Shown: positions 4,942 through 25,071, numbered from the stretch's first letter. The stretch is 32,179 nucleotides of DNA from Methanoregula sp. (GCA_030653335.1 JAURZP010000403.1:1-32179); one strand, 5' to 3'. Program-made: numbers and translations. Notes: a model not told the origin generated them from the sequence alone.

Positions 4942-4943
4942 TT

Positions 4944-6029
4944 TTACCGCTCCGTGCAGGCAACACAAGGGTCTGCCGAGATGAAGGTTGCAGTGACATC
5001 GGCGATTGAATCCGACCCGATGATCATCTCGTGGCAGCACGCTTCGATGTTCATGATGGACGGAGTCTGGATCTGGATCTCTACGATTCGTCCGAATTCA
5101 TCACTCTTGATAAAATAGGTCAGTTCTCCCCGTGGGGCTTCGCCGCTGTACCGGGTCTCTCCCGCTTTGCAGACGCCCCCGCCACGCACTACACCTTTTG
5201 GAAGTTCCCGCAGGCATTTCCGGATCAGATCGATGCTCTGGAAGACTTCGTCGAACCGGACCATCACCCGCGCAAAGTTATCGCAATCGGGCCGGGTGAT
5301 CGGGACAAAGCCGAGTTTCTGGTAGGTTGGATGATTTTGCCGGCAGTCATACGCGATTCCACTCCCCCGTGCAGTCGGACCAACCACATGGGCCCGCTGT
5401 GCTGCCTCCAGTGTGAGAATCCCGACACCCCGGCTACGCAGTGCGATCATCGGACCGCTCTCAAACATCCCGGAATACCGGCGCAGATCCCCTTCGATCC
5501 GGTCGAGCGATACCAGTAATGCTTCTGCTTCCTTTCTCTGGATGTCGCACCGGACACCCCCGGGGATCATGTAAGCGCAGGTGACCCGGGCACCGGTCAG
5601 GCGCTCAAGTTCATCCATCACATGCTCCCGTAAGTCAAGCAGGTACATCCCCAGTGTCTCGTGCTCAATCGTATAGCAGTACGAGAAATTGGCGAGTATG
5701 TGGCTCTGCATCCGGTCGAGTTCGTTTGCGATCACCCGGAGATACGCGGCGCGGGGCGGAACGACGATATCGCTGATCTGTTCCATAGCCTCGATAAATA
5801 CCATGTTATGGATCACCGAGCAGATCCCGCAGACTCGCTCGGCAAGGAACATCACCTCCTGCCACGGGCGCCCCTTCATGATCCGCTCGATCCCCTTCTT
5901 CATGTACCCGAGCTCGACTTCGGCGCCGGTAATGCGTTCACCTTTTGCCTCGCACTTGAGCCGGACCGGCTCCTTGAAGCAGGGGTGAATGGGCCCTAAC
6001 GGAATATTGACATCCACAATACGTTTCAT
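4944..6029 (-). CDS. ehaO: Energy-converting hydrogenase A, [NiFe] large subunit
   Basis: GPIHP, ERVCGIC (L1) and DPCVAC (L2) motifs, EAPRGEL. Confidence 0.95.
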   Translation of the reverse strand: MKRIVDVNIPLGPIHPCFKEPVRLKCEAKGERITGAEVELGYMKKGIERIMKGRPWQEVMFLAERVCGICSVIHNMVFIEAMEQISDIVVPPRAAYLRVIANELDRMQSHILANFSYCYTIEHETLGMYLLDLREHVMDELERLTGARVTCAYMIPGGVRCDIQRKEAEALLVSLDRIEGDLRRYSGMFESGPMIALRSRGVGILTLEAAQRAHVVGPTARGSGIAYDCRQNHPTYQKLGFVPITRPDCDNFARVMVRFDEVFQSIDLIRKCLRELPKGVVRGGGVCKAGETRYSGEAPRGELTYFIKSDEFGRIVEIQIQTPSIMNIEACCHEMIIGSDSIADVTATFISADPCVACTER

Positions 6030-6481
6030 TAGTGCTCCTCCTCCCAGTTGGCAAAGACTGAATCGCGCACCGACATGATTGCCTGCAGGATCTCGGTGGG
6101 ACGGGGCGGGCAGCCCGGAACTTCAGCAGCGATCGGGATGTGCTTTTTTACCGGTGGATCGACAAAGGAGCCCTTCCGATCGAACAGGCACCCGGAGATG
6201 GGGCAGTTGCCGATGGTGATTGCGGCCTTTGGTGCGGGAATCTTCTCCCAGACCATGGCAAGTTTCTCCTCCCAGCCCGGGGTATAGGCGCCGATCACGA
6301 GCAGGACATCAGCTTCCCTTGGGTTATTGTGGACAAATATGCCGTACTGTTCGATATCGTAGCGGGGGGCTAAACAGGCGAGCACCTCGATATCGCAGCC
6401 ATTGCAGGATCCGACATCTACGTATGCCACATGGATCGAACGCGACCGTACCTTATTTTTTATCCGCTGGAGAATGTTCAT
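6029..6481 (-). CDS. ehaN: Energy-converting hydrogenase A, small subunit
   Basis: GSCNGCDIE, NPREADVL, GNCPISG, PGCPPRP (NuoB-like). Confidence 0.95.
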   Translation of the reverse strand: MNILQRIKNKVRSRSIHVAYVDVGSCNGCDIEVLACLAPRYDIEQYGIFVHNNPREADVLLVIGAYTPGWEEKLAMVWEKIPAPKAAITIGNCPISGCLFDRKGSFVDPPVKKHIPIAAEVPGCPPRPTEILQAIMSVRDSVFANWEEEH

Positions 6482-6867
6482 ATATTCAATGCCTCCCGTA
6501 TCTGTATCCTGCCATACGCGATCGCGTCATCCAATGGTGTGCCTGTTTGTAAGCGTGCATCCACTTCCCTGAAAATGGCATCCATTGCTGCACCGGAAAG
6601 GATCTGAAGATAAACCGTATATTTTTCCCGTCCCAGTGCCTGTGCAACTGCATCGCCCTGATCGGCATGATCTGCTGCCATCTCCGCCCGTGCGGGGAGA
6701 TTTTCCAACTGGATCATGTCAAGATGTTCAATTAAGTATCTTCGCAACTCCTGCACGGGAATATTCAGTTCAAGGGCAATCTTCCGCACAAGGATGTCGT
6801 GCCGCATCGCAACAAGAATCCGGTATTTCTGGGGAACAAGATCCTGCTCGTAGAGGTAGGTGGTCAT
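6478..6867 (-). CDS. ehaM: Eha subunit M (DUF1959-like)
   Basis: Soluble 129 aa directly before ehaN; LDMIQLENLPAR motif. Confidence 0.75.
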   Translation of the reverse strand: MTTYLYEQDLVPQKYRILVAMRHDILVRKIALELNIPVQELRRYLIEHLDMIQLENLPARAEMAADHADQGDAVAQALGREKYTVYLQILSGAAMDAIFREVDARLQTGTPLDDAIAYGRIQIREALNI

Positions 6868-7106
6868 AACAGCCCCCCGTATTTGAACGCCCCGTAAACC
6901 ACAAACAGGAGCACGGCGGCCCAGAGTGCGACAATCTCAGCAGTGTGGAGCCGGTGCTCATCATTTATGAGATAGTATGCAGTGGCAATCGCGAGCACAA
7001 TGGCAACAACAATGCCTTCTGCCCAGATAGATGGCCGGTCAATGATCTGGGCGATGGTGATGAGAATGTACAATACACCTCCAAAGAGAATCGTTTCACG
7101 GATCAT
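6864..7106 (-). CDS. Small Eha membrane subunit (EhaK-like by position)
   Basis: 80 aa, three hydrophobic segments, overlaps ehaJ and ehaM. Confidence 0.65.
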   Translation of the reverse strand: MIRETILFGGVLYILITIAQIIDRPSIWAEGIVVAIVLAIATAYYLINDEHRLHTAEIVALWAAVLLFVVYGAFKYGGLL

Positions 7107-7951
7107 GGTTGCACCACCATCAGGACTATCGCCGCATACACAAGCATCAGGGCGGTTACCAGCATCTGGATGGTCACCGAATCAAAAGGCGACATCATCG
7201 GCGTGACTGCACAGGCAAACGCGAGAATTACAATCATCAGGATCATACCAACCAGAAGCCATGGCAGGGAGAGCGGCCCGATGAATACCGCAAGGAAGAC
7301 GGCGATCAGGACATAGGTCTTTAAGCCGTTGCAGATCTCAAGACCCGCACGCCAGATGCCGAAGTGTTCGGTCTTGTACCCGCTTACCAGCTCCTTTGCC
7401 TCAACAATGGAGAAGGGACCAAAGGGCATCTTTGAGAGGATCACAATGAACATCGCACAGGCTGCCGGAAATGCAATGATGAGCAGCGGGCCGTGCACCT
7501 GCTGGTAATACATAATGGCAGAGAGGTCGAGTGAGCGGGTGTAGACTGCGATCACTGCAACGCTGACAAAGAGCGGGAGCTCCGATGCGGCCGAGATGAC
7601 TGACCGGACACCGCCATACTTGCTGTACGGCGATCCGGACGAGAGCCCGAACCCATGCTCCACGATCTTATGGAGCATGTAGATCCCAAAAATGACAAGG
7701 AGGCTTCCCCCGCTGATGAGCACGTAGAATGCAGCCGTCCAGATACCAATTGCGATCAGGACAACCCCGACAAAGAGGACCGGGCTTGCGGTCTTTGGGA
7801 TCCAGGTTGTCTTGAAGGAGAACTTGAGCATGTGCAGGATCTCCTGCCATATGGGCGGGCCGGGTCTCCGCTGGATCCGGGCGATGATCTTCCGGTGGAT
7901 GCCTAAGAGGAGCAGGCCAAAGAAGGTGGCAATGAGGAGTTCTGCGATCAT
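7103..7951 (-). CDS. ehaJ: Eha subunit J (NuoH-like membrane subunit)
   Basis: ARIQRRPGPPIWQ, SSGSPYSKYGGVR, PFSIVEAKELVSGY; start reassigned to ATG 7951. Confidence 0.92.
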   Translation of the reverse strand: MIAELLIATFFGLLLLGIHRKIIARIQRRPGPPIWQEILHMLKFSFKTTWIPKTASPVLFVGVVLIAIGIWTAAFYVLISGGSLLVIFGIYMLHKIVEHGFGLSSGSPYSKYGGVRSVISAASELPLFVSVAVIAVYTRSLDLSAIMYYQQVHGPLLIIAFPAACAMFIVILSKMPFGPFSIVEAKELVSGYKTEHFGIWRAGLEICNGLKTYVLIAVFLAVFIGPLSLPWLLVGMILMIVILAFACAVTPMMSPFDSVTIQMLVTALMLVYAAIVLMVVQP

Positions 7952-7952
7952 A

Positions 7953-8162
7953 TCAGTACCCGATGAACGGGATGTCACCTCCGGACTCTCCTGCCATCCA
8001 GATAAAGAAGAGTGAAAGAACCGTGACCGGGAATGTCACGACAAGCAATGCGGAGCAGACAGGGAGCGGTATCATTCCCATGAAGTACAGTACGGATGCG
8101 ATCACACAGACACCCGCACCCACCCAGAATATTCGTGCAACCGTTGTTCTCTTCATCTTCAT
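7953..8162 (-). CDS. ehaI: Eha subunit I (small membrane protein)
   Basis: Two TM segments, C-terminal DIPFIGY; start ATG 8162 overlaps ehaH stop. Confidence 0.75.
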   Translation of the reverse strand: MKMKRTTVARIFWVGAGVCVIASVLYFMGMIPLPVCSALLVVTFPVTVLSLFFIWMAGESGGDIPFIGY

Positions 8163-8821
8163 CACCCCAGCATAATGATCTCGACAACCCGCAGGAATAT
8201 CAGCAGCGAGGAGAGCGAACACATGATCACATACGGTGCACCCGGGGCCCGGAACATCTCGGCTTTTGCCGCGTAGAAGGGAGCCATTCCCTCACCGATC
8301 ACGCCGAGCATGAGCATCCCCTTTGCGATCAGCGGAACGGCCGGCACGGTGCCTTTCATCAGCTCGATCATCGAGAGCGAGCCGGTTACAGCAGCGTACA
8401 CAGCAGCGCCAGCAAAGAGGGGGACTGTTGCTGCAAGAGCCACCAGCCCGTACTGGTATGCCGCGTCCTGCACGTGCGGGCTCTTTACCGCAGCAACAAT
8501 CCCGACATTGGTGATTCCGACCATCGCAGTAAAGAGGGTGAAGTTAAAGATATCCCCGGTCACCATCGCTCCCATCGTGGCAAGCCCGCAGGCGATCGCC
8601 ATAAAGCGCCGGAACCGCATCTCGTCCACACTGATCTCCTTGGCCCGGTAGGCATCGCCACCAAACGCGATATCGATCTGTTTTTCGGGCTGGCTGATGA
8701 GCGCAAGCACGGTAAAGGTCAGGGCGAGCAAAAAGAGCGTGATCGTGTAAGGCGTCAGGTATACAAGTTCATCGCCAAACTCCAGTATATAGAGGGGGAC
8801 TCCCCCGACAAGATCAATCAT
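8162..8821 (-). CDS. ehaH: Eha subunit H (antiporter-like)
   Basis: RFRRFMAIACGLAT, TGDIFNF, APFYAAKAEMFRAPGAPY; start ATG 8821. Confidence 0.88.
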   Translation of the reverse strand: MIDLVGGVPLYILEFGDELVYLTPYTITLFLLALTFTVLALISQPEKQIDIAFGGDAYRAKEISVDEMRFRRFMAIACGLATMGAMVTGDIFNFTLFTAMVGITNVGIVAAVKSPHVQDAAYQYGLVALAATVPLFAGAAVYAAVTGSLSMIELMKGTVPAVPLIAKGMLMLGVIGEGMAPFYAAKAEMFRAPGAPYVIMCSLSSLLIFLRVVEIIMLG

Positions 8822-9419
8822 GCTGCTTCCCCCACATGGTCCCGACAAGGGACATCTTCACGGTTACTTTCAGGAGGATGCCAATCGCAGCTCCCATGAG
8901 CGCAACAAACCAGTACTGCGGCAGGAACATGAAGACAAAGAATGCAAAGATCCAGATCGCCCATGAGATACCGCTTGCCATCTCGAGCAGGTTTAAGTCA
9001 TTCCGGTACGTGCGGGAGATGAAGAGAAAGACCAGGCCAAGCCCCGCCACCCCGCCCCCGGTAAACCCGGAGAGGACCATGCCATACGCAACAAGGAAGA
9101 TCGAGAGGATCAACGGTGCATCAGACTTTGTGATCACTTCGATGTTGAGCCCCATCACGGGCCGGTTCCGGATCCCCTCCTTGGTGCAATAGATCTGGGA
9201 AAGGGCGAGCAGTTCAGCAATTCCCACCGTAAGGCCCGGGAGGATCAGGGCTTCTGCAAGATCGGTGCCGAGCATTGCGATGATACCGAGCGCCACGATC
9301 TCGACCAGATCGAGAAGGAGAAGCTTGTGGAGGTCATCGCGCTCCCGTGCCAGTGCATAGAACGCAATGACTGCGGCAACCATTATGACCAATATCCCGT
9401 AACTATACTGTGCCCACAT
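8814..9419 (-). CDS. ehaG: Eha subunit G
   Basis: GTDLAEALILPGL, SGFTGGGVAG motifs; operon position. Confidence 0.85.
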   Translation of the reverse strand: MWAQYSYGILVIMVAAVIAFYALARERDDLHKLLLLDLVEIVALGIIAMLGTDLAEALILPGLTVGIAELLALSQIYCTKEGIRNRPVMGLNIEVITKSDAPLILSIFLVAYGMVLSGFTGGGVAGLGLVFLFISRTYRNDLNLLEMASGISWAIWIFAFFVFMFLPQYWFVALMGAAIGILLKVTVKMSLVGTMWGKQHD

Positions 9420-9421
9420 GG

Positions 9422-9865
9422 TCAGACCTTCCGGTAGATATACGAGGCAATGGCAAACGCGATGAAGAGGATCGTGGCCTCAACAACCGTATCAAGGCCC
9501 CGGGTGTTGTACAGGATCTCGTCAATGATTCCTCCCGGGTGCGCGACAATGGTGGTCCCAAGGTGCATGGTTACCTGCGACAGGAACAGGGAAAACGGTG
9601 TCAGGTAGGACGTAACAAGCCCTGCGGTCGGGGAATTTTCCGGGTACTGGGAGACTATGCTCACTTGCGTGAATGGTGGTCCCCCGCGATCGTACGGGTC
9701 GAGCGAGCTGTTGCGGTCAAAGGTCTTGGGATAGAGCTGTTTCTCACTGTACGGGAGCGGAAGAAGTAAGATACCGGCAATAAACAGTAGCAGGCAGGCA
9801 CCCGCAAAGAGGGGCATGATATTTTCATAGTTGCAAAGGAAGTGCGAGATCTTCCTGATGATCAT
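9422..9865 (-). CDS. ehaF: Eha subunit F
   Basis: QLYPK, PYDRGG, QYP, PGGIIDEILYNTRGLDT motifs. Confidence 0.88.
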   Translation of the reverse strand: MIIRKISHFLCNYENIMPLFAGACLLLFIAGILLLPLPYSEKQLYPKTFDRNSSLDPYDRGGPPFTQVSIVSQYPENSPTAGLVTSYLTPFSLFLSQVTMHLGTTIVAHPGGIIDEILYNTRGLDTVVEATILFIAFAIASYIYRKV

Positions 9866-10113
9866 GCTGCCGCCTCTTTCTTCTGGATGACCCGGACATA
9901 GATGAACGTCGAAAGCACGGATATTGCCCCGAACGTGAGCAGGGCCAGCGCCTCATTGTACGAGAGCATGACGAGCAGCAGGCCAAAGGCCGGGATCTCA
10001 AGATTGATCAGCCGGGTCAGGTAATCTTTCGGACGGGGAAACGCCACGGCGATCGTACCGGCTACCAGCACGATGAGGCCGAGAATAAATTCCGGGGCAT
10101 AACCGGCAATCAT
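9862..10113 (-). CDS. ehaE: Eha subunit E
   Basis: RLINLEIPAFG...SYNEALALLTF; 83 aa membrane protein. Confidence 0.82.
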   Translation of the reverse strand: MIAGYAPEFILGLIVLVAGTIAVAFPRPKDYLTRLINLEIPAFGLLLVMLSYNEALALLTFGAISVLSTFIYVRVIQKKEAAA

Positions 10114-10343
10114 GATGATGCTCTCCTCTGGCAGGCCATCAGGATGAAGACCGTTGATAGCGGGGCGATCAGTGCAAGTGCAATAGCCACGTCAAGCAAT
10201 CCGCGATCAACAATGAACGGGAAGATCCCGGCGATCAGGATCGAGAGCGAGATCAGTTTGTCAAACGGATCGCGGTTGACAATCGCTGCGATCATGCCAA
10301 TGAGGATGAGGATGGCTGAAGCAGCCATGATGATCTCATCCAT
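10110..10343 (-). CDS. ehaD: Eha subunit D
   Basis: DPFDKLI...LDVAIALALIAPLST; 77 aa. Confidence 0.82.
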   Translation of the reverse strand: MDEIIMAASAILILIGMIAAIVNRDPFDKLISLSILIAGIFPFIVDRGLLDVAIALALIAPLSTVFILMACQRRASS

Positions 10344-10581
10344 TGCGCTTCATCCCCCCGGACCAGGTACTCGCGATCGCGTTGGACTCAAACGTGGACC
10401 CGACAAAGAACGCTGCTGCTGCAAGGATTGTAAGAGGATGCGGTACCAGGAGTGCAATGATCGCGGTCACGGCAAACGAGATGACGTTGAGAAACGGCAG
10501 TTTGCGCATGGTATTTCGTTCGGTGATGATCCGCAGGGCTGCATACACCGCGATTACTGCGCAGAGGTATATTGCGATCAT
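10336..10581 (-). CDS. ehaC: Eha subunit C
   Basis: KLPFLNV, FFVGSTFESNAIAST; 81 aa. Confidence 0.85.
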   Translation of the reverse strand: MIAIYLCAVIAVYAALRIITERNTMRKLPFLNVISFAVTAIIALLVPHPLTILAAAAFFVGSTFESNAIASTWSGGMKRNG

Positions 10582-11084
10582 GGATTAACTCCCAGCAACC
10601 TGTTACGGAGATCCCAGAGCCGGGCAATCAGCCGGCTGGAATGCACATGGGAGATGCCCTGTATGGTGAGGATCGCAATCACCATGCCGGCAATAAAGTC
10701 CGAAGCGGCAAACCCGATCTGGGTCATGCCAAAGACAATAAACGTCGCGGTGATCGCGCCGGTCGTGCCCGCATAGCCGGGATCGTAACAGATGCGGTTC
10801 CCGATATACACGAGCAGGGCTGCAAAAAGACCGCCGGGAAGTCCTGCGCAGTACACCCCGCAGGCAGCAAGGAGCGTTCCTGCCGAAGCATCGGGAGATG
10901 ATACGATGTTGCCCAGCATGAAACCGCCGTGCAGGTTCCCGCCGCCCTTTTCCACTTCCTGTGCAATCGCAGTTGCCCCGCAAACGCCCCCGCTCGCTGG
11001 TAAATTAAAGAATACATCAATAGCTACAAAATTGATCCAGCACAGCGCTGCGGCAATAAGGATACGGGCGGGCTCATCGAGCAT
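10578..11084 (-). CDS. ehaB: Eha subunit B (first gene of this eha operon)
   Basis: GGNLHGGFMLGNIVSSPDASAGTLL, GNRICYDPGYAGTTGA motifs. Confidence 0.82.
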   Translation of the reverse strand: MLDEPARILIAAALCWINFVAIDVFFNLPASGGVCGATAIAQEVEKGGGNLHGGFMLGNIVSSPDASAGTLLAACGVYCAGLPGGLFAALLVYIGNRICYDPGYAGTTGAITATFIVFGMTQIGFAASDFIAGMVIAILTIQGISHVHSSRLIARLWDLRNRLLGVNP

Positions 11085-11317: not shown

Positions 11318-11782
11318 CTAACGTTCACATGAACCGGATTTTTCACTGGCAAGATAGTCGTGGAGACGAATGGCCCGGGTCTGCAATTCTCCTGCAAAAC
11401 GGGTGAGTTCTGTTGCGGCGGCAGCAGAGACTTTGCCATATCCCCGCATGTGTCTTGGTCTGATCTCTTCGGCTGCAATGTCGATGGAATATAGTCTGGA
11501 ACGAATGGCCCGGGAGACAGGAATACCCGGAGGGTTACTGGAAATTCCCTGTTTTTCCAGTGTCTGGGTGAGCTGGGCGCGGACGCTGGCAATATAATCT
11601 TCAATTACCTTCCGTTGTGCATGAGTAATATCAGGGATATATGAAGGGAATGCCGCTTGTGAATCAGTCTCGTTCAGGACACTCTCAATCTCGCTGAGGA
11701 TGCTGTCGATGTGCTGGCAGGTGATGCGAAGGCGGCGTTCCTGGTTCTCGTCCAGAGTGTCATTTTCCGCTCTTGTGGTCAA
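11318..11782 (-). CDS. Helical protein resembling the N-terminal domain of bacterial dynamin-like proteins
   Basis: LDENQERRLRITCQHID...FPSYIPD...IEDYIASVRAQL...DIAAEEIRPRHMRGYG matches, from recall, the N-terminal region of some bacterial dynamin-family proteins; 6 nt gap after eno. Confidence 0.7.
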   Translation of the reverse strand: MTTRAENDTLDENQERRLRITCQHIDSILSEIESVLNETDSQAAFPSYIPDITHAQRKVIEDYIASVRAQLTQTLEKQGISSNPPGIPVSRAIRSRLYSIDIAAEEIRPRHMRGYGKVSAAAATELTRFAGELQTRAIRLHDYLASEKSGSCER

Positions 11783-11788
11783 GATATG

Positions 11789-13072
11789 TCACCGGACGAA
11801 CGCTTTCCTGCCGGCATAGACTGCTCTGCTGCCGAGTTCTTCCTCGATCCGCATGAGCTGGTTGTACTTCTCTACCCGTTCGCCCCGGCAGGGTGCACCG
11901 GTCTTGAGCTTGCCGGCACATGTTGCGACCGTGAAATCGGCGATGAACGAATCAGGGGTCTCGCCGCTCCGGTGGGAGACGTTGATGCCCCAGCCGGCTT
12001 TCTTTGCGAGATCGATAGTTGCAAGCGTCTCGGTCACGGTCCCGATCTGGTTGAGTTTGATCAGCACAGAGTTTGCCGTATGTTCTGCAATGCCCCGCTT
12101 CACCAGTTCCGGGGACGTGACAAAAATGTCATCTCCGATCAGTTCGATTGTGTTCCCGAGCGCTTCTGTCAGCAGTTTCCAGCCCGCCCAGTCATCCTCG
12201 GCAAGCCCGTCTTCGATAGAGATGATGGGATAGGTATCGACAAGCTTCCGGTAATACGCGGTCAGCTCATCGGGTGACAGATTCCTGCCCTCGCGTTTGA
12301 GTTCATACTTCCCGTCATGGAAAAAACCGCTCGACGCCGGGTCCAGCGAGATCCCGATATCTTTACCGGGCCGGTACCCTGCCTGTTCTATGGCGCGGGT
12401 GATGAGTTCGAGCGGTTCCTCGTTGGATGCAACCTTCGGGGCAAACCCGCCTTCGTCGCCAATCGCAGTCGGGTAGTTTTTCTTTTTCAGGATGTCCTGC
12501 AGTGCGTGGTACGTCTCGGCACCCCATTGCAGTGCGGTGTGGAAATCGGGAGCACCAAAGGGAGCGATCATATACTCCTGGAAATCCGCACCCTGCCACT
12601 GGGCATGCACCCCGCCGTTGAGCACATTCATCATCGGGACCGGCAGGAGATACTGATTGTCTTTGTTCAGGTACTCGTAGAGCGGGATATCCCTTGATAA
12701 GGAAACGGCCCGGGCTGCCACCATCGAGACCCCGAGGATTGCATTTGCGCCGAGCTTACCTTTGTTCGGAGTTCCATCGATTGCGTTCATGGCACGGTCT
12801 ATTGCCTCCTGTTCAGTGGCATCCTCCGCGATAAGAACAGGTGCAATGAGGGTGTTCACATTAGCGACAGCTTTGAGCACCCCTTTGCCTCCGAACCGCT
12901 TCGGATCTTTGTCCCGGAGTTCTACAGCCTCATGTATCCCGGTCGATGCTCCTGACGGTACCGCAGCCCGTGCCTTGGTACCGTCAGCAAGAACAATATC
13001 CACTTCGACGGTCGGGTTGCCCCGTGAATCGAGGATCTCGCGTGCATGAATTTTTTTAATTGCTGTTTTCAT
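11789..13072 (-). CDS. eno: Enolase (phosphopyruvate hydratase)
   Basis: AREILDSRGNPTVEV, VPSGASTG, GDEGGFAP, SHRSGET, KYNQLMRIEEELG; likely start ATG 13072 with AAGGAG RBS (alternative 13123). Confidence 0.97.
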   Translation of the reverse strand: MKTAIKKIHAREILDSRGNPTVEVDIVLADGTKARAAVPSGASTGIHEAVELRDKDPKRFGGKGVLKAVANVNTLIAPVLIAEDATEQEAIDRAMNAIDGTPNKGKLGANAILGVSMVAARAVSLSRDIPLYEYLNKDNQYLLPVPMMNVLNGGVHAQWQGADFQEYMIAPFGAPDFHTALQWGAETYHALQDILKKKNYPTAIGDEGGFAPKVASNEEPLELITRAIEQAGYRPGKDIGISLDPASSGFFHDGKYELKREGRNLSPDELTAYYRKLVDTYPIISIEDGLAEDDWAGWKLLTEALGNTIELIGDDIFVTSPELVKRGIAEHTANSVLIKLNQIGTVTETLATIDLAKKAGWGINVSHRSGETPDSFIADFTVATCAGKLKTGAPCRGERVEKYNQLMRIEEELGSRAVYAGRKAFVR

Positions 13073-13272
13073 CTCATTACGCTCCTTTGTATTCCCGTTT
13101 TGTTTTCCATTCATTTTATCCATCGTTCATTCAGCAATATGCCCCTCAACAGCATATCGTTTTTGCACAACAAGCCCCAACACAGGAATCATTGACTTAC
13201 CTTTCCGGGTCAGTCCCTGACAAAGTCAACTGACTTCCCCGTGCAGGTACAACGGACATAATTGCCGATAAA

Positions 13273-13320
13273 ACAGAAGTCATCAGCCCGGATAAGGCGG
13301 TTATGGCGGACTTCATCGCC
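13273..13320 (-). ncRNA. Fluoride riboswitch (crcB motif) upstream of eno
   Basis: Minus strand GGCGATGAAGTCCGCCATAACCGCCTTATCCGGGCTGATGACTTCTGT: P1 GGCG/CGCC, pseudoknot GAAGT/ACTTC, AACCGC...GCTGATGAC core. Confidence 0.92.
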
Positions 13321-13773
13321 AGATGATTAAAAAATGATGGTTCTTTACTGTTTTATGTGTATGCATTTCTTGATGCTTTGTGGATGTCGACAACAGAGAT
13401 CGCAACCGTGAAGAAGCTGACGGCAACATCGTGCCGGGTGTGTTTTTTAATCTTTGAGGATCCGGTTTTGTGGTCCGCAGGGAAATGATTCGGGACCAAA
13501 GTTTTCACCGGCGCTATCTATAGGGAAACACGAGCGGAGGTGTTCGACAAGACGTTTGCCAGGATCGGGGCGGTGTGGGTGACTCCATGAGTGCACCTTT
13601 GGTGCCCCTTTAAGAAAATCGTGAAATCCCTTAACTGTAACCCTTCACGGGTCGCAAAGATTATTGTCCGCAATGTGTCCGCTATCAATCTCCCCCTCCC
13701 CCTTCAAATTTTCAGTGGTCTTGATTTTTCTTTGAATTTCACTCGTTTTCCAGATCGCAGGTATTTGGCTGCA

Positions 13774-13801
13774 ATGTCCGATAATGTCCGAATATGTCCG
13801 A
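13774..13801. repeat. Three direct repeats ATGTCCGA at 10-nt period
   Basis: Copies at 13774, 13784, 13794; further TGTCCG copies near 13665-13681 and 13906. Confidence 0.7.
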
Positions 13802-13881
13802 ATTACCCATTAGGTTATTCGGGAATATTTTGCCTCATTTACTCAAACGGGTGGAAGTTCTCAGCCGGATTGCTAACCCTA

Positions 13882-15264
13882 TCAGTGCCCGGAATTTTCT
13901 GGAAATGTCCGAAATGGATCATTTAGCAGATAGATAGTACTCTTGGTCTTTCCTTCTTTCAGGACAATATGCAACGTCTCCAGTTCTGAAAGATCCCGCT
14001 GGGCGGTCTTTTGCGTGCAGGCGAATTGTTTTGCATACTCAGCAGATGTGATCCCTGGGTGCTGACGGAGATATACGAGTGCCTGTTTTTGCCGGTCGTT
14101 GATCAAATTCGGTTCTTCCATGAAGCGGTTGATGCTTGACCGGGTGAAGGTTACTGAGAATGAATCATCCTGTTCCCTGAACTCCGGATCGGGAAGGGTT
14201 TGTTCACGGCATGCCTTTACCATGTGAATGGTCCCAGAACCCCATTGTTCAATGAATCCTGCGAGGAAGAGCAGATCCGCAACAGCGGTATTTCTCGGAA
14301 GGGACAGGTGATCAATCTTTAATGATTCTACGGTCAGGACATTCGGGAGTTTTCCCGGGTTACATACCTGAAGTTGTCCGGCAAATATCCGGACCTGGGC
14401 ATGTGCAACGGACCGGTAATCCCGGTGGCAGAGCGCGTTGATAACGGATTCCCGCACGGCTTCCGGGGGATAATCCCAGTGTTCCTCCCGCCGTGTTTTG
14501 CCGGGAACGACCCATGCGGATTTCCGGATCTCCGACAGGATAAAACTGACCGTATCATCGATCTGGCGCATAAGCGGTCCACCGATCAACTTCATGCTGA
14601 TGCAGGTGCTGGTAACATCGGTCCCGCTGAAATGGCCGCAGCGGATTTCGGCCTGATGGATGAATTGCTGGGGATCTTTTCCGAATATCAGGATCGCAGT
14701 GTTTGTAGGCACACCGTCTTTGAGCAGGTGGAGTTTTTTAAGGAGGCTGGAAACGGATGCACTTGCGTCGGCATCGTGGCGGCGTTCGTCTTTTGCCTTT
14801 GCAAGAAAATCGTAAACAATGGCAGGATCGATATCATCGATCGTTGCGCCAGGGCAAATTTCCCCATCCCACGGGGGCTGGTTGATGGTAAGGATCGTCC
14901 GCTTGATTTCGTCGGGGGGCATGACCCGGTTCTCGGTTCCTGTCCGCATGTACGCGATACCATCAAGATAGTACGGTTTGCTGATTCCCTCCGGGACCGC
15001 GACAACGATCAGGTGTTTTCCCCCTTCTTCGATGACGCGGATATCGGATGTAATCTCCGGTTTTATCCGGGAGGCGATTTGCTGGGAGAGTTTGCGGAGT
15101 GAGTGGTCAGCAGGATCTACGCCGACTATTGCCCCGGTGTTGGTCCTGCCAAACGAGATGACGCCGCCATGATGGTTGAGGAATCCGCAGACGGATTTGA
15201 GCGCAGGCTCGATGAGGGAGAGGGATTTTTTGAATTCAACCGTATCGGATTCGTGGAGGGTCAT
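13882..15264 (-). CDS. AlbA_2 (Schlafen-like) + HATPase_c_4 + winged-HTH protein (RecG-C-like regulator)
   Basis: ESDTVEFKKS...CGFLNHHGG; YPPEAVRESVINALCHRDY; NPGKL; RN...IEQWGSG; C-terminal NDRQKQAL...TAQRDLSEL. Confidence 0.88.
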   Translation of the reverse strand: MTLHESDTVEFKKSLSLIEPALKSVCGFLNHHGGVISFGRTNTGAIVGVDPADHSLRKLSQQIASRIKPEITSDIRVIEEGGKHLIVVAVPEGISKPYYLDGIAYMRTGTENRVMPPDEIKRTILTINQPPWDGEICPGATIDDIDPAIVYDFLAKAKDERRHDADASASVSSLLKKLHLLKDGVPTNTAILIFGKDPQQFIHQAEIRCGHFSGTDVTSTCISMKLIGGPLMRQIDDTVSFILSEIRKSAWVVPGKTRREEHWDYPPEAVRESVINALCHRDYRSVAHAQVRIFAGQLQVCNPGKLPNVLTVESLKIDHLSLPRNTAVADLLFLAGFIEQWGSGTIHMVKACREQTLPDPEFREQDDSFSVTFTRSSINRFMEEPNLINDRQKQALVYLRQHPGITSAEYAKQFACTQKTAQRDLSELETLHIVLKEGKTKSTIYLLNDPFRTFPENSGH

Positions 15265-15579
15265 GAACGGAGGGCCTCATACAATGTACTGAATTAGGGT
15301 TCTCTTCCTTTTTCTGGTTGTTGCTCTCCTCCTAAAGAAAAAACGTGATTTGTTCAGATTCTGCACAACGGATCTCCCCACAACCCCATTCAGCAAAACC
15401 TAAATTTCCCGACCGAGGGGGAATTATTCCAGCCCGGGGGCCCAACGGTGGGGAGCAAGAGAAAACTATTGGCAGATTTCGTATAGAGCAATGTCACCAA
15501 GAGTGCGGTTTTGTGAACTCGCGGACCCGAAGCGGATATCTTCCAGAGTTTTCTTTTTCTTTTTTTTGCCGGGATAAAC

Positions 15580-15595
15580 AAAGAATTAATTATCT
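15580..15595 (+). promoter_or_regulatory. Candidate BRE/TATA for riboswitch-dynamin transcript
   Basis: aaagAATTAATTATct ~28 nt upstream of the riboswitch 5' end. Confidence 0.5.
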
Positions 15596-15620
15596 GCACA
15601 TGCGAACGATTTCAGTATCC

Positions 15621-15667
15621 GGTGATGGAGTTCACCGCTAACTGCCTTTTGTGCTGATAACTCCTAC
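15621..15667 (+). ncRNA. Fluoride riboswitch (crcB motif) upstream of dynamin-like GTPase
   Basis: GGTGATGGAGTTCACCGCTAACTGCCTTTTGTGCTGATAACTCCTAC: P1 GGTGA/TCACC, pseudoknot GGAGT/ACTCC, AACTGC...GCTGATAACTCCTAC core. Confidence 0.92.
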
Positions 15668-15736
15668 CCGACCGTTTCCCGGTGCCACAATTGCGGGCTG
15701 CCAGATCGGCCGGATAATACAAGGAGGAATACTCCT

Positions 15737-17542
15737 ATGGATGATACCAGCACCCCCACTCCATTACCCTCTCAAAGCACCACTACGATCTCCGTACCGG
15801 AAAACCTGCCGGAGATCCTGAAGACTGAACGGCGCCGCTTTGAAGATATGGACTCACGCTACGCCGTCCATGCAAAACGACTGGACGAGCTGGAAAAGCG
15901 CCTTTCACAAGGGCGGTTCCATCTCGCGGTGCTCGGGCAGGTGAAGCGGGGCAAAAGTACGCTCTTAAACGCCTTGCTCGGAGAGGACGTACTTCCGAGT
16001 TCGGTCGTCCCGCTCACTGCCCTCCCGACATTCGTCCAGTACGGGGAACAGCGGTTGCTCACGGTACGGTACAATGACAATCGCCCGGACACGGTCATGA
16101 AAGGCGAACCAACGCAATGGTTAAACAAGCAACTGATGGGCTTTGTGACCGAGGATGCCAACCCGAAAAACGAAAATGGTGTGCTCCAGGTGGAGATCAC
16201 CCACCCCGCTGCGATCCTCCGGGATGTTGTCCTCATCGATACACCCGGCATCGGTTCAACCTACCGACACAACACCGAGGCAACGATGAACTTCCTGCCG
16301 CAATGCGATGCGGCTCTCTTTGTCATTTCGGCGGACCCGCCTATAACGGAAGTTGAAGTCACTTTCCTCAAAGAGATCCGGAGCCGGATCGGACAATTAT
16401 TTTTCGTGCTGAACAAGGTGGACTACCTGACCGATGCTGAGCGCGAAACAGCTGTCGGTTTTTATCGCACGGTCCTGACACGCGATGCAGGTATCGAACC
16501 CGGCACCCGGATCTTTCCTACGTCCGCACGGAAGGGATTGCTGGCAAAAGAGTCCGGGGATGCACAGCAGTGGGAGGAGAGCGGACTTGCCGAAGTGTTC
16601 GATCACCTGATAACCTTCCTCGCCAAGGAAAAGAACCGGGTACTGAGGGATGCCATCGGCAGAAAAGCGTTCGATGTTTTCCAGGATGTACACCTCCAGA
16701 TTGGTCTTGAGAACCGGGCGCTTGAACTGCCACTCGCCCAGCTGGAGTGCAGGCTCGCTGTGTTTGACAAAAAGATCGTAGAAGCAAAGGAGCAGCGGAT
16801 TCATGCACAGGATATCCTTACCGGGGACCAGAAACGGGTGTACGCTCAGTTAGAAGCGTATATCGAAAATCTCCGCTCCCCTCTCCGCGAGCGGCTCACA
16901 ACAATAGCCGAAGCAGCTATCTCCGCATCACCGCAGAGCCCTGAGCATACAGCGCAGCAGGCTGTGGCAGATGCGATCCCGGCATGGTTCGAGCGCGAAC
17001 TGGGGCGGATCTCTGCGATGATGGACCAGGAGATCGCAGCACGGCTAAAGGACCACGAACAGCGGGCCGACGACCTCATCGAATCCATCCGGAAAGCAGC
17101 AGCGGAACTCTTTGACATTCCGTATCACGCACCTAGGGGTGAACGGGCCTATGAGCCGGTGAGAAAACCGTACTGGGTTGAACATGACTGGGACAGTTCA
17201 TTCTCTCCGGTTTCGGCCGAAGTCATCGGACGGTTTCTGCCTAAATCCCTGCGTGAGAGCCTGGCCCGGGACCGGCTGAAAAAGCAGATCGATATGCTGG
17301 TGATTCGCAATCTTGAGAACCTCCGGTGGGCGACCATTCAGAACATTGATACGGCCTTCAGGAAGTTCAGCAGCGATCTCGATACGAATCTTGGCCTGAC
17401 TATCGATGCTACCCAGGGTGCAATCCGTTTGGCACTCGAAGAGCGGACACGGCATGAGGAGAATGTTGCGGGCCGTATTGATGAACTGAAGAAGACTGCA
17501 ACTGATATTCAGTGCGTGATCGACACATTCGGGAGCGGGTAA
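15737..17542 (+). CDS. Bacterial-type dynamin-like GTPase
   Basis: G1 GQVKRGKS, G2 PSSVVPLT, G3 DTPG, G4 NKVD, G5 SAR; long helical C-terminal region; AGGAGG RBS. Confidence 0.9.
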   Translation: MDDTSTPTPLPSQSTTTISVPENLPEILKTERRRFEDMDSRYAVHAKRLDELEKRLSQGRFHLAVLGQVKRGKSTLLNALLGEDVLPSSVVPLTALPTFVQYGEQRLLTVRYNDNRPDTVMKGEPTQWLNKQLMGFVTEDANPKNENGVLQVEITHPAAILRDVVLIDTPGIGSTYRHNTEATMNFLPQCDAALFVISADPPITEVEVTFLKEIRSRIGQLFFVLNKVDYLTDAERETAVGFYRTVLTRDAGIEPGTRIFPTSARKGLLAKESGDAQQWEESGLAEVFDHLITFLAKEKNRVLRDAIGRKAFDVFQDVHLQIGLENRALELPLAQLECRLAVFDKKIVEAKEQRIHAQDILTGDQKRVYAQLEAYIENLRSPLRERLTTIAEAAISASPQSPEHTAQQAVADAIPAWFERELGRISAMMDQEIAARLKDHEQRADDLIESIRKAAAELFDIPYHAPRGERAYEPVRKPYWVEHDWDSSFSPVSAEVIGRFLPKSLRESLARDRLKKQIDMLVIRNLENLRWATIQNIDTAFRKFSSDLDTNLGLTIDATQGAIRLALEERTRHEENVAGRIDELKKTATDIQCVIDTFGSG

Positions 17543-17551
17543 ATTTGTCTG

Positions 17552-17740
17552 ATGAGTGGTACTATGCGTTGTGATGAAGGTAAACGCTGTCCCAGCTGCG
17601 GGAACTTTCTCACCAGTTCAGAAAAAATCCACTATAGCGGGAAGAATGATTATCAGAGCAAGGCATTTGTTTTCTGTCCTGCCTGCGGATGGAAACAGCG
17701 CTGCACCGAAAGGGACGATGATCTTTTTCCCTATCGTTGA
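17552..17740 (+). CDS. Small zinc-ribbon protein
   Basis: 62 aa with CPSCG and CPACG; 9 nt gap after dynamin stop. Confidence 0.6.
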   Translation: MSGTMRCDEGKRCPSCGNFLTSSEKIHYSGKNDYQSKAFVFCPACGWKQRCTERDDDLFPYR

Positions 17741-21511: not shown

Positions 21512-22246
21512 TCAGACAATCCCATTCCCATAAATTTTGACGAGATAGTACACTCCGATCACAATAAAAACCGCAGCAACCGCTCTCCGTATCCAGACTT
21601 CAGCAGCACCGATTTTCTGAACAATCCCGCTGCACTTCCCAACGCCCTTTACAAGTATATACGAGATCAAGATGACCGGCAACCCCGTGGCAATCGCAAA
21701 CACTGCCGGTATGAACACCGGATCGCCCGCCCCGAGCGCCAGCGGGATGAGCATCGCAAAGAATAGCACAGCGGAGAACGGGCAGAAACTCAGCGCGAAA
21801 ATAATCCCGAGCAGGAATGCGCCCAGGTATCCCTTCTCTGCCAGCCGTGCCGAAATGCCGGATGTGAACCCGGAGAACCAGTCGCCTCCGGGCAGCCGGT
21901 CGAAATGGATGATGTCGAGCAGGTAAATCCCGCATAAGACAAGAAACGGCCCGAGCAGCCGTTCGCCGTAGTGCTGGAGTCCCAAGGCCACTATCTGGAT
22001 GTTCATCCCGAAGAAAACGATGACCGAGGCAACCGTGATATACGCCGTCATCCGGCCGAGTGTGTATACGAACCCGGTGAGAAGCGTGTGCCGGCTGCTG
22101 TCAATCCTCTTTGAAATATAGGCAATAGCGGTGATGTTAGTCGCGAGCGGACAGGGGCTGATAGCGGTCATCAGCCCGATGAAGAATGCGGCAACAAGAG
22201 GGACAGGATTTTCTCCCATTGTCCCGAGAAAATTCAGGAGATCCAT
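21512..22246 (-). CDS. ArsG-family / CcdA-DsbD-like membrane protein
   Basis: AISPCPLATN and ALSFCPFS conserved Cys pair; multi-TM. Confidence 0.85.
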   Translation of the reverse strand: MDLLNFLGTMGENPVPLVAAFFIGLMTAISPCPLATNITAIAYISKRIDSSRHTLLTGFVYTLGRMTAYITVASVIVFFGMNIQIVALGLQHYGERLLGPFLVLCGIYLLDIIHFDRLPGGDWFSGFTSGISARLAEKGYLGAFLLGIIFALSFCPFSAVLFFAMLIPLALGAGDPVFIPAVFAIATGLPVILISYILVKGVGKCSGIVQKIGAAEVWIRRAVAAVFIVIGVYYLVKIYGNGIV

Positions 22247-22247
22247 A

Positions 22248-22724
22248 TCAGGTGAGATCCCCGTTTAAGCGTTTCGAGATCAGACCCGTGAGATAGAAGT
22301 TATAGGTATCTTTGTTGCCGATCAGGGACCACACCCGGGTATCTTCTTTTTTGTGGAAACCATTTGCATCATAAACACCGATCCAGAGTGATGACCCGGT
22401 CACCCCATACTTCGTTGCAAGAGCGACATTCTCCGGAAGGTCATAATTGATATGAGCAAACACGAGCTTTCCTGATGCGAGTTCGACTTTGAAATTGGCA
22501 TTTACGGTCTTTTCCGCGAGGTTGCCAACGGCGATGCAGGATGTGCATTGGGAGTTGCCGTGGAAATGGTACACCTCGACCCGCTCAACAGTGCTGGGGG
22601 CACTGGTTTTGGACAAGGTTGCAGACGGTGCTGCACCCAGATGAGGTGAAGTGTCGGTACAACCTGAAGTAACCAGGAGAACGATAATGAGAAAAACCAC
22701 GGTGAGAGAACGCAAAAGCTGCAT
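22248..22724 (-). CDS. ArsF-family thioredoxin-fold lipoprotein
   Basis: Lipobox-like VTSGC; VEVYHFHGNSQCTSC. Confidence 0.8.
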   Translation of the reverse strand: MQLLRSLTVVFLIIVLLVTSGCTDTSPHLGAAPSATLSKTSAPSTVERVEVYHFHGNSQCTSCIAVGNLAEKTVNANFKVELASGKLVFAHINYDLPENVALATKYGVTGSSLWIGVYDANGFHKKEDTRVWSLIGNKDTYNFYLTGLISKRLNGDLT

Positions 22725-22743
22725 GATGCTATTTTCCTCAGGG

Positions 22744-23142
22744 TTACTTCCCCATGCGTTCAGTGCACTTCAGAGCCTTACGCCCGCTATCCGTGATTGT
22801 GTAGATAATCCAGTTGCCCTGCTGTTCACCGACAATAAGCTCCTGTTCTTTAAGGATATTGAGGTGATAGGAGAGTTTCGATGCCGCAATGTTCACAATA
22901 CCTTTGATGACACAGACACAGAGCGGCTGGGAGAGAAGTGCATACAGGATAGAGAGCCGGATCGGGTCTGCAAGTGCCTGGTGCAACCGGCTGCCGTCGA
23001 GAAGTGCAGTCGAATCCGGGATCTTCGAGAGAAGGCCTTCGATCCCGCCCTGTTTGTCAAGATCTTTTTTAATCGGATCCGGAAGCTCATGACTAAAATC
23101 ACAGCAATTTTTCTTCAGGAGCGATGTCCGTTTCAGTACCAT
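22744..23142 (-). CDS. arsR: ArsR/SmtB transcriptional repressor
   Basis: ALADPIRLSIL, PLCVCVI, SKLSYHLNILK, GNWIIYTIT; N-terminal CC. Confidence 0.88.
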   Translation of the reverse strand: MVLKRTSLLKKNCCDFSHELPDPIKKDLDKQGGIEGLLSKIPDSTALLDGSRLHQALADPIRLSILYALLSQPLCVCVIKGIVNIAASKLSYHLNILKEQELIVGEQQGNWIIYTITDSGRKALKCTERMGK

Positions 23143-23147
23143 GAGTA

Positions 23148-23218
23148 ATTCAAATTAATATGAAATAGCAAGGTATATAATCTTGTCCTGCTCACATTGA
23201 TTCAACAAAAATTGAAAT
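23148..23218. promoter_or_regulatory. Divergent promoter: central TATATAA flanked by two ArsR-type operators
   Basis: ATTCAA-ATTAAT-ATGAAAT (23148-23166), TATATAA (23174-23180), ATTCAA-CAAAAA-TTGAAAT (23200-23218). Confidence 0.75.
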
Positions 23219-23230
23219 GATGTGAGGACC

Positions 23231-23617
23231 ATGGAAGGACAAAAAACCTCCTGTAGTTGTGGTGCAGAGGGAAAAACACGGATCATCTACTCCTGCTCCG
23301 GTATCGGATCGAATGTCGGGCAACTCGCCAATGCGGTCGCGTGCCGGCTGGCGGGCGAAGGGTACGGCGGGGGCTCGTGTCTCGCCGGTGTCGGTGGGGG
23401 TATTGAAAAACTGGTTGGCCAGGGAAAATCGGCTGACGAGCGGATCGTGATTGACGGTTGCCCGGTTGCCTGCGCAAAGAAGATCATGGTTGACAAAAGC
23501 TTGTCAATCGATCGTTACGTTATGATCACGGATCTCGGCATCACCAAAACACCCGGCCCCACATTCGTTGAGAGTGATGTACAAACAGTAATCGATGCTG
23601 TCAAAAACACGCGGTAA
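23231..23617 (+). CDS. DGC-domain putative zinc-binding protein
   Basis: CSG..SNVGQ, SCLAG, IDGCPVAC; ATG 23231. Confidence 0.85.
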   Translation: MEGQKTSCSCGAEGKTRIIYSCSGIGSNVGQLANAVACRLAGEGYGGGSCLAGVGGGIEKLVGQGKSADERIVIDGCPVACAKKIMVDKSLSIDRYVMITDLGITKTPGPTFVESDVQTVIDAVKNTR

Positions 23618-23712
23618 TATCAGGTATGTATGTACAAGACGGTAAAATAGCACCTTGATAAAACTGGAACAGTACGAGCGGATAACAAAATAACTAACAG
23701 AGGAATACACTT

Positions 23713-24783: not shown

Positions 24784-24792
24784 GGTAGTACC

Positions 24793-25071
24793 ATGAGCGA
24801 CGACAAACCCTGCTGTGCCGCAGAAGCGCTCCGGCGCATCCGGCAGATCCCGGTCAACGGGATCATGACGGGCATCACGATGCTCGATGAGAGCATTGAG
24901 GATGTGAATGAGCAGAACCTGGGAAGTGAACAAGAGACCATCGCTGCGCTCATGAAAAAGATCAGAATCTACAATTATGTCCCAAAAGGGGTTGAGGAAG
25001 CATATGCCCATGCCATTATGGAAGAATACAAAAAACCATCCCAAAAAACTAATACAAAAAATGTTGAATAA
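24793..25071 (+). CDS. Conserved hypothetical protein with vicinal Cys pair
   Basis: PCCAAEALRRIRQI...NYVP; GAGGT RBS; tight operon spacing. Confidence 0.7.
   Translation: MSDDKPCCAAEALRRIRQIPVNGIMTGITMLDESIEDVNEQNLGSEQETIAALMKKIRIYNYVPKGVEEAYAHAIMEEYKKPSQKTNTKNVE

Follow-up and report, generated by a model that had tools for sequence, protein, structure and literature searches.

Fluoride riboswitches linked to an enolase and to dynamin-related genes in a methanogen and in Acidobacteriota

Fluoride riboswitches of the Rfam family RF01734 are described as on-switches (PMC2864571; PMC11139923), and the regulons named in the main texts on this family comprise Fluc/CrcB, CLC-F, a Na+/H+ antiporter, enolase, pyrophosphatase, a MutS-like protein and formate hydrogen lyase (PMC2864571; PMC11139923; PMC7266159). 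A separate body of work concerns the dynamin-like proteins (DLPs) of prokaryotes, of which the IniA/BDLP-like class binds and remodels membranes according to the sections cited here (PMC6715688; PMC6104087). The locus presented below brings both together. It lies in a stretch of 32,179 nucleotides (nt) from Methanoregula sp. (GCA_030653335.1 JAURZP010000403.1:1-32179), the whole of which we call the window, where two divergent fluoride riboswitches head, on one side, a second enolase gene (eno) and a small gene, orf154, and on the other the gene for a dynamin-like GTPase, DLP-B, and a putative Zn-ribbon gene. The locus is real and conserved, it is a variant of the fluoride regulon, and we did not find the link between switch and dynamin in print. 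Related loci, genomes, contigs and sequencing runs are cited by our own numbers (L, G, C and X) where they have to be told apart. The elements that make up the locus are the following:

11318..11782, minus strand: orf154, the free N-terminal four-helix domain of a second dynamin, DLP-A (47 longer proteins match)
11789..13072, minus strand: second enolase, bacterial-like, probably 427 amino acids (TIGR01060, 616 bits)
13267..13329, minus strand: fluoride riboswitch 1, heading eno and orf154 (RF01734, 54.1 bits, E 1.6e-12)
15612..15673, plus strand: fluoride riboswitch 2, heading DLP-B and the Zn-ribbon gene (RF01734, 51.7 bits, E 1e-11)
15737..17542, plus strand: DLP-B, complete 601-amino-acid dynamin-like GTPase of the BDLP/IniA/mitofusin class (PF00350, E 3e-28)
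17552..17740, plus strand: 62-amino-acid putative Zn-ribbon protein that has two CxxC motifs, starting 9 nt after DLP-B

Both aptamers span the Rfam model from end to end (positions 1-64 of 64) and exceed its gathering score of 34. An earlier note, made from the sequence alone, had seen here two complete crcB-motif aptamers, the one on the minus strand heading eno and orf154 and the one on the plus strand heading the 601-amino-acid dynamin-like GTPase and a Zn ribbon, and it had proposed the Rfam model as a check; that description holds and the scores do not speak against it, with the qualification that the Pfam zinc-ribbon match stays below its cut-off. These are the only Rfam matches in the window, and no further fluoride switch was found in the remainder of the genome. 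The compensatory differences in P1 and the pseudoknot that had been noted between the two copies are also genuine: one P1 pair changes from C-G to U-A and one pseudoknot pair from A-U to G-C, and these double-sided changes occur in 13 and 14, respectively, of 33 homologues. In the alignment of the 33 switches 100% of the cells of P1 are paired and 98.8% of those of the pseudoknot, in a test that covers these two elements and copies that are related to one another, hence few independent events. Both switches occupy the position of a 5′ leader, riboswitch 2 ending 63 nt ahead of DLP-B and riboswitch 1 lying some 195 nt ahead of eno.

The same arrangement recurs far beyond this contig. Full-length DLP-B is encoded in 18 of 151 related genomes (two partial copies, in G075 and G067, were set aside), and each of the 18 genes has a switch on its own strand between -5 and 192 nt upstream, 17 of them above the Rfam cut-off and that of G101 at 26.5 bits. 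On the side of the orf154 domain the census was made with an aptamer model of our own (matches of at least 25 bits on the same strand, with Rfam as a check), and a switch was found no more than 5 kb upstream in 15 of the 21 archaeal loci and in 43 of the 49 bacterial ones, 58 of 70 in all; within 400 nt the counts are 3 of 21 and 32 of 49. Rfam confirms 21 switches in 12 of the 16 bacterial loci tested, and several of the loci that lack a switch have little DNA upstream. The bacterial loci are labelled Acidobacteriota in 47 of 49 cases, so the link spans two domains of life, methanogens and mostly Acidobacteriota, and what the earlier note had taken for an archaeal system, proposing this very census of dynamin homologues behind crcB motifs, is not limited to archaea. 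The genes accompanying these loci include Fluc, DUF190, enolase, a Na+/H+ antiporter, USP, MutS_V, MFS and hydrogenase-like genes. Nor is a missing exporter a general feature, since Fluc is present in 40 of the 49 bacterial loci, usually directly behind DLP-A. Among the 18 methanogen genomes with DLP-B it is present in 6, the other 12, our host included, being without it; of the latter, 5 were tested for CLC, three of which carry it elsewhere, while G101 and G105, which are 98-99% complete, have DLP-B and neither Fluc nor CLC. Taken together, these counts make it very probable that switches and dynamin genes belong to one regulon.

DLP-B itself is a canonical member of its class. Its match to PF00350 reaches 99 bits against a cut-off of 27, and the motifs G1 (residues 67-74), G2 (T94), G3 (168-171) and G4 (226-229) are invariant or nearly so in 60 homologues. 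Profile matches lead to BDLP (E 5e-41), IniA (3e-31) and Cj-DLP1/2 (5e-30), and to mitofusins too. The structural model, with a predicted local distance difference test score (pLDDT) of 80.5, shows predicted long helices at 299-458 and 503-597 that correspond to neck and trunk bundles, and Foldseek aligns it with IniA and BDLP over its whole length, the best match being IniA (E 3.6e-22). At the tip of the trunk there are an aromatic loop and, near residues 494-507, an amphipathic stretch, which are kept in methanogens and would suit peripheral membrane binding of the kind attributed to IniA, for which a lipid-interacting loop is described (PMC6715688). DLP-B is the only dynamin of the host genome and is found in just 53 of 401 genomes of the order, and it would therefore be an accessory protein rather than a housekeeping enzyme that is topped up; being accessory and tied to the switch, it is likelier to serve a dedicated response than to compensate for a poisoned housekeeping GTPase. 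A complex prediction for DLP-B (20-601) with orf154 (8-151), both supplied as alignments, scored 0.00 and is uninformative either way. As for the putative Zn ribbon, homologues stand directly after DLP-B in L040, L041/L106, L057, L101, L186, L187 and L203, and a dedicated search with the 62-amino-acid protein gave one match.

The enolase on the other side is full length and unambiguous (616 bits against the TIGR01060 equivalog cut-off of 300; E 3e-161 to the best solved enolase structure), and its start is probably at 13072 rather than at 13123, where the longest open reading frame begins. It is 84-88% identical to the closest switch-linked enolases of methanogens and 54-58% identical to those of bacteria, and only 38% identical to the genome's housekeeping enolase, which sits in a ribosomal-protein gene cluster. 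Enolase is inhibited by fluoride and has already been described under fluoride switches (PMC11139923, in the part cited), and an extra enolase fits that inhibition.

The nature of orf154 is less evident, as it has no Pfam or NCBIfam match and no sequence match in the PDB. The longer proteins that it matches are of 509-717 amino acids (mostly 677-717), and 46 of the 47 carry PF00350 Dynamin_N, on which basis orf154 is the N-terminal domain of a second dynamin of about 685 amino acids, DLP-A. Because DLP-A resembles DLP-B over the GTPase only (31% identity over 218 residues), orf154 is no fragment of DLP-B. The idea that orf154 and the 601-amino-acid protein are halves of one dynamin, the "split dynamin" of the earlier note, was rejected: the pieces are not complementary parts of one homologue, and full-length orthologues of the 601-amino-acid protein stand beside intact DLP-A in relatives. 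A heterotypic pair is likewise reduced to a single dynamin gene here, many relatives having two full-length DLP genes in their loci. The GTPase and trunk of DLP-A are absent from the genome, and there is no remnant of them downstream of orf154. The AlphaFold2 model of orf154 (pLDDT 88.7) has helices at 12-40, 54-77, 89-115 and 120-149, and in the domain residues C22, E105 and E106 are invariant and further acidic residues conserved. Foldseek gives no match at E<=0.001; in VIA the best Z is 7.1, to generic helical hairpins; in the ESM Atlas the top matches are unnamed clusters of proteins of 139-181 amino acids with 81-93 members each; and a Pfam search on 69 members of the domain yields scattered weak matches, none of them for the window protein. 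An internal repeat of two hairpins was considered and rejected (probability 0.3%).

The 70 loci with the domain, one of which (L104) is a weak partial match, divide into 44 with full DLP-A, 4 with frameshifted DLP-A, 3 running off a contig end and 19 with the free domain, these last being 15 called automatically plus L052, L084, L095 and L097, in which the short downstream matches are the DLP-B gene. The range charted for the domain takes in Methanomicrobiales and, in the main, Acidobacteriota. The stops of the free domains cluster at residues ~146-185 instead of spreading over all 685, in loci gathered with the orf154 domain as query, to which other fragments of DLP-A are invisible. In a tree of 68 rows, with ten loci left out, orf154 of the window clusters with four further free copies from archaea (100/97), free L064 stands beside L107 (99/91), L052 and L068 fall within a 99/91 group, and the free copies L076, L091 and L096 lie within a 100/91 group of full-length copies. 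This topology indicates that the free domain arose several separate times. The ratio of nonsynonymous to synonymous substitution rates (dN/dS) of free copies is 0.07-0.41 (21 unsaturated pairs), and 26, 22 and 67 of 135 first, second and third codon positions differ between the window gene and L035, its sister among the free copies; the low ratios and the excess at third positions argue for purifying, somewhat relaxed selection. The free domain is thus no accident. In G127 (L113:5010-5933), downstream of a switch and a COG1689-like gene, the domain lies inside a frame of ~300 amino acids that has no dynamin GTPase, and in L042, L046, L047, L062 and L043/L205 DLP-A occurs with no DLP-B nearby, often switch-less or frameshifted, the frameshifts being either decay or sequencing errors.

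How far DLP-B and the free domain belong together can be judged from the 401 genomes of the order, 44 of which carry the domain and 26 of which carry it free, that is, with no match to the DLP-A GTPase (a few are partial, broken or fused). DLP-B is present in 21 of these 26, against 53 of the 401 overall, and the two may share a single operon: in L194-L198 one switch is followed by DLP-B, a prenyltransferase-fold gene that we take to be COG1689-like, eno and the free domain, and in L186 one switch is followed by DLP-B, the Zn-ribbon gene and the free domain. The shared operons and the co-occurrence support a shared function. At the same time G092, G101, G102 and G107 (98-99% complete) have DLP-B without the domain; in L051, L076, L091 and L096 a switch is followed by the free domain, Fluc and two DUF190 genes, with no dynamin found in the genome and with dN/dS of 0.07 and 0.14 among the domains of this type; and in G091/G174 (98% complete) the domain stands directly behind a switch, with no dynamin and no Fluc. 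DLP-B without the domain and the domain without a dynamin point to separable modules of one regulon. Of the proposal that a fluoride regulon here supplies the parts of one dynamin machine, the regulon of switch-linked enolase and dynamin-system genes stands, whereas the parts are not halves and can be separated; that orf154 belongs to the dynamin system is right by its descent from DLP-A and, often, by a common operon with DLP-B.

Some of the related loci are richer in switches than the window. L105 (G043:C16:70098-82052), L106 (G085:C33:12806-26950) and L107 hold 5-8 fluoride switches per ~12-14 kb with a different gene behind each, among them second copies of the genes for glutamine synthetase, dihydroxy-acid dehydratase and F420 ligase, a prenyltransferase-fold gene (again presumably COG1689-like), MFS and a Na+/H+ antiporter, and these islands have the look of a reserve set of metal-dependent enzymes. 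The acidobacterial loci L048, L049, L061, L063, L074, L079, L082 and L087 have, upstream, one more dynamin-like gene, their third, which in many cases follows a gene for cyclopropane fatty-acid synthase with its own switch; this hints at membrane modification under fluoride.

In the window the two arms are not only divergent but separated, and the leaders and the region between them contain the following features:

13220..13266, minus strand: second fluoride aptamer of a tandem, decayed, in the leader of the enolase (leaders compared by eye)
13344..15546, no strand: strain-specific insertion between the switches (switch spacing 2,282 nt vs 76-112 nt)
13882..15264, minus strand: gene of 460 amino acids with AlbA_2 (Schlafen), HATPase_c_4 and HTH domains, within the insertion (Pfam)
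15576..15594, plus strand: promoter motif of the dynamin arm, presumably BRE/TATA-like, conserved and intact (most homologous leaders carry a similar motif, equally spaced)

The ancestral layout, seen in L040, L041/L106 and L107, has back-to-back switches with DLP-B (and the Zn ribbon) on one side and eno and full DLP-A on the other. In 11 archaeal pairs without an insert the switches are 76-112 nt apart, and in the window, where homology to relatives picks up again at ~13343 and 15547, the distance is 2,282 nt. In runs X3 (from another study) and X15 there are contigs that connect the two flanks of the insertion directly, so that strains free of it exist, and X2 bridges its left junction and X1 its right one with zero differences; on these grounds the insertion is real and strain-specific. 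Sequencing runs with small shares of the window were not used as evidence. The AlbA_2 gene, which the earlier note did not include, has at least 4 paralogues elsewhere in the genome and is not among the module's conserved members. A search for terminal repeats or a transposase belonging to the insertion turned up nothing convincing. Short stretches inside it, window 15385-15530 and 13378-13685, recur at 70-85% identity on several other contigs of the genome and are possibly a small repeat or mobile-element ends. On the enolase side the conserved promoter motif is cut at 15547, its A-rich piece staying behind at 15547-15558, apart from the motif's core. The BRE/TATA reading of the motif follows the general archaeal consensus. 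As to the tandem aptamer, it gives no score at E<=10 with our own aptamer model; it is intact in L036/G028 (38.4 bits), where L036:2149-2257 (G028:C80) holds an intact pair ahead of eno, near-intact in L041, and has decayed to varying extent in L041, L040 and the window.

A terminator scan found no terminator-like site overlapping either aptamer. When the aptamer of the eno leader is locked in folding calculations the opening of the ribosome site rises from 0.47 to 0.96, and, given the missing terminators and the opening predicted here and in some DLP-B leaders, control at translation would be plausible and likelier than control at termination.

If these elements are put together, we consider, with slightly more confidence than doubt as regards the whole chain, that the locus is an accessory fluoride-induced module composed of a backup enolase, a membrane-remodelling GTPase and the free front domain of DLP-A. 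Its switches are family members that are tied to enolase and dynamin genes across methanogens and Acidobacteriota. From what is known of the family, binding of Mg-fluoride would lock the pseudoknot and turn expression on, the extra enolase would then offset the fluoride block of the housekeeping enolase, and DLP-B, to go by its fold, would bind the inner face of the membrane with its trunk tip and use GTP for repair or reshaping, which could limit the entry of hydrogen fluoride, proton leak or lysis. The class of this DLP, together with the weight of membrane-integrity genes in the survival of Pseudomonas putida under fluoride (PMC9796867, in the part cited), makes membrane repair or reshaping the best guess, so that the pairing of switch and dynamin likely marks a membrane-protecting response; both the induction by fluoride and the remodelling of membranes are what we infer for the module. 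orf154, descended from the DLP-A N-terminus and kept by selection, could act as an optional adaptor or regulator, and in the strain of the window a recent AlbA_2 insertion has cut the enolase-side promoter motif.

Several observations weigh against this account. The genomes are kin, so that the linkage counts are not independent events, and 6 of the 21 archaeal loci have no switch upstream, 4 of these being orphan DLP-A genes, two of them frameshifted. The orf154 domain is missing in 21 of the 53 genomes with DLP-B; conversely, no dynamin was found in the free-domain genomes G168-G171, G173, G174 and G176 (in G174 there is a marginal match, E 6e-4), nor in the domain-bearing G127. Free copies of the domain evolve faster than fused ones, whose median dN/dS is 0.12 (86 pairs). 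In DLP-B no transmembrane paddle is predicted (maximum hydropathy 1.3) and residues 468-492 of the tip are modelled at low confidence. Locking the aptamer opens the Shine-Dalgarno sequence by at least 0.2 in 6 of 15 DLP-B leaders (15 of 17 leaders folded), and in the window it is covered by a local hairpin at 15722-15736 whether the aptamer is locked or not. Finally, the promoter motif on the enolase side is broken in this strain.

This last point leads to the reading, rather unlikely, that the left arm is crippled in the strain of the window, the insertion having destroyed the promoter of eno and orf154, so that only the dynamin arm responds or the left arm depends on read-through from the inserted gene. 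The core of the conserved motif is absent upstream of switch 1, the tandem aptamer has decayed and strains without the insertion exist; however, eno, orf154 and switch 1 are intact, by eye a TATA-like run rich in A can be seen roughly as far from switch 1, and the matter would concern one strain and not the system. A defence island, with an anti-phage dynamin beside a Schlafen/AlbA gene and the switches as bystanders, we regard as very improbable: the insertion site is variable, and PADLOC does report weak and partial matches of DLP-B to LeoA (E 9e-20) and LeoBC (E 8e-13) and partial defence-model matches of AlbA_2, but membership of DLP-B in the LeoA family was rejected (22.7 bits with NCBIfam NF041922 against a cut-off of 325), none of the dynamin genes in the mapped relatives of the locus had a neighbour matched as AlbA, and the switch is directly upstream of every one of the 18 DLP-B genes.

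The remaining alternatives concern what the proteins do. It is improbable that the products of the two transcripts are obligate components of a single machine, in which DLP-B would require orf154 as its assembly domain, after the manner of Cj-DLP1, whose N-terminal domain the Campylobacter tetramer requires; orf154 does correspond to an N-terminal extension of the partner dynamin, in the position of the 119-amino-acid assembly domain of Cj-DLP1 (PMC6104087, in the part cited), and it accompanies DLP-B in most free-domain genomes and in single operons, but DLP-B dispenses with it in near-complete genomes such as the four named above, the DLP-A profile matches Cj-DLP1 from position 282 on only, and an assembly domain without an attached second GTPase has nothing to tether. 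Somewhat less improbable, yet still unlikely, is that the domain has a fluoride job of its own, together with Fluc/DUF190 or as a binder of ions or metal fluoride, its fusion to DLP-A in some genomes being incidental. The loci in which it joins Fluc and DUF190 under purifying selection, its position directly behind a switch with neither dynamin nor Fluc, and the invariant C22, E105 and E106 with the conserved acidic residues would agree with this, against which the free domain mostly tracks DLP-B in methanogens (21/26), the host genome has neither Fluc nor DUF190, and no completeness is stated for G168-G171. GTPases bind metal fluorides in their active sites. The dynamins might then serve export or detoxification directly, by placing or clustering Fluc or antiporters, by shedding vesicles or by trapping fluoride as a complex of guanosine diphosphate (GDP) and metal fluoride, and to this we give as little credence as to the obligate machine; Cj-DLP1 binds GDP-AlF4 (PMC6104087, in the part cited), Fluc usually lies right behind DLP-A in the bacterial loci, and G101 and G105 carry DLP-B with neither Fluc nor CLC, but in 12 of the 18 methanogen genomes with DLP-B there is no Fluc to act on, and a protein of 67 kDa per fluoride complex would be a poor sink. 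Relative to these possibilities the accessory module of enolase, GTPase and free domain is the reading we retain, and more tentatively, as a conjecture that we would sooner doubt than affirm, it could represent an exporter-independent fluoride defence common to archaea and bacteria, made of a switch-induced membrane-protecting dynamin and a detachable four-helix orf154 module that was severed from the partner dynamin more than once and would itself serve as a protein of the fluoride response.

The window is contig C20 of a genome of 2.9 Mb in 574 contigs, 93.5% complete, whose fwd, energy-converting hydrogenase and mtr genes identify the host as a methanogen; the nearest named loci are from Methanoregula species, and the three best-matching DNA runs are groundwater metagenomes, the best of which may be the sample of origin; no RNA run is listed among the holders. 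As had been stated for the window, it holds no Fluc/CrcB or CLC-F, and neither switch heads a classic exporter-centred fluoride operon; no Fluc or CLC was found in the rest of the genome either, an absence that its incompleteness leaves unproven, and there is no DUF190 in it. An X4 contig (from another study) ties orf154 to the hydrogenase side at 97% identity, so that Fluc was not simply lost at an assembly gap beside orf154. The module probably fills a variable slot with the hydrogenase operon on one side and a gene for a GntP-family permease on the other: these flanks are 1.3 kb apart, with other genes between them, in 2 of 29 relatives (in the other 27, 1.5 kb of flank was examined), and one X5 contig joins 11158 to 17863, weakly, with 57 letters on its short side. 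On the left, at 207-11084, the energy-converting hydrogenase-type operon leads straight into fwdD/B/A/C-like genes, an order that is ordinary for methanogens of this group. On the right, at 21512-27005, ArsR, three DGC-domain genes, two ArsP_1 permease genes (one of 187 amino acids), a thioredoxin and a DsbD-like gene form an arsenic or metal response cluster that adjoins the fluoride module.

The neighbourhoods of these riboswitches once revealed the fluoride exporters, and in archaea and bacteria alike they now suggest that dynamin-like GTPases take part in the fluoride response, so that a prokaryotic dynamin family would gain a defined inducing signal and a single salt would make two open questions testable, the role of these GTPases in the cell and the effect of fluoride on membranes. 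Should the conjecture of an exporter-independent defence be true, this would be the main inducible fluoride defence in the genome of the window, in G101 and in G105, in which no Fluc or CLC was found. orf154 would be a small uncharacterised helical protein retained even after the loss of its GTPase, and the methanogens would offer candidate natural riboswitches, of which a single archaeal example is listed as tested in the portion cited of one review (PMC8241225). We found no published link between a fluoride switch and a dynamin in the full-text literature, although the gene tables of the early surveys (Baker 2012; Weinberg 2010) might list such GTPases.

Among the closest known systems, the LeoA/LeoB/LeoC "Dynamins" anti-phage system and Bacillus DynA share the DLP superfamily and, in the case of the Leo models, weak PADLOC matches, whereas DLP-B is far below the family cut-off for LeoA and its link is to fluoride switches, not to defence genes. 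Cj-DLP1/Cj-DLP2 of Campylobacter (PDB 5OWV/5OXF; PMC6104087, in the part cited) are, together with Nostoc BDLP (2J68), of the same GTPase class as DLP-B, and they resemble the loci described here in that two DLPs are encoded together, one of them with an extra N-terminal domain; the difference is that in the window the second GTPase is lost, only its front domain is left, and the genes are divergent and not side by side. Between orf154 and the assembly domain of Cj-DLP1 no sequence likeness was detected, in searches that are indecisive for a small helical domain, while position and size are alike. The structure closest to DLP-B is IniA (IniA/IniC, PDB 6J72/6J73; PMC6715688, in the part cited), at a template modelling (TM) score of about 0.5, also a soluble DLP with a long loop and a lipid-binding tip in place of a paddle, and IniA/IniC are stress-induced and encoded by paired genes; IniA, though, is only 19% identical, IniA/IniC are induced by cell-wall drugs, and the account cited describes no riboswitch and no free partner domain. 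As to the switches, that of Thermococcus kodakarensis is described as the only natural archaeal riboswitch tested and as presumably translational (PMC8241225, in the part cited); it controls export genes, while the window has a divergent methanogen pair heading enolase and dynamin genes. In the RF01734 regulons described so far, the main texts of PMC2864571, PMC11139923 and PMC7266159 do not contain the word "dynamin", and the switches of the window, in a genome in which no exporter was found, head genes for a dynamin-like GTPase and for a domain of no Pfam family; with those regulons the locus has in common the same aptamer, an enolase downstream and, in its relatives, the classic fluoride genes.

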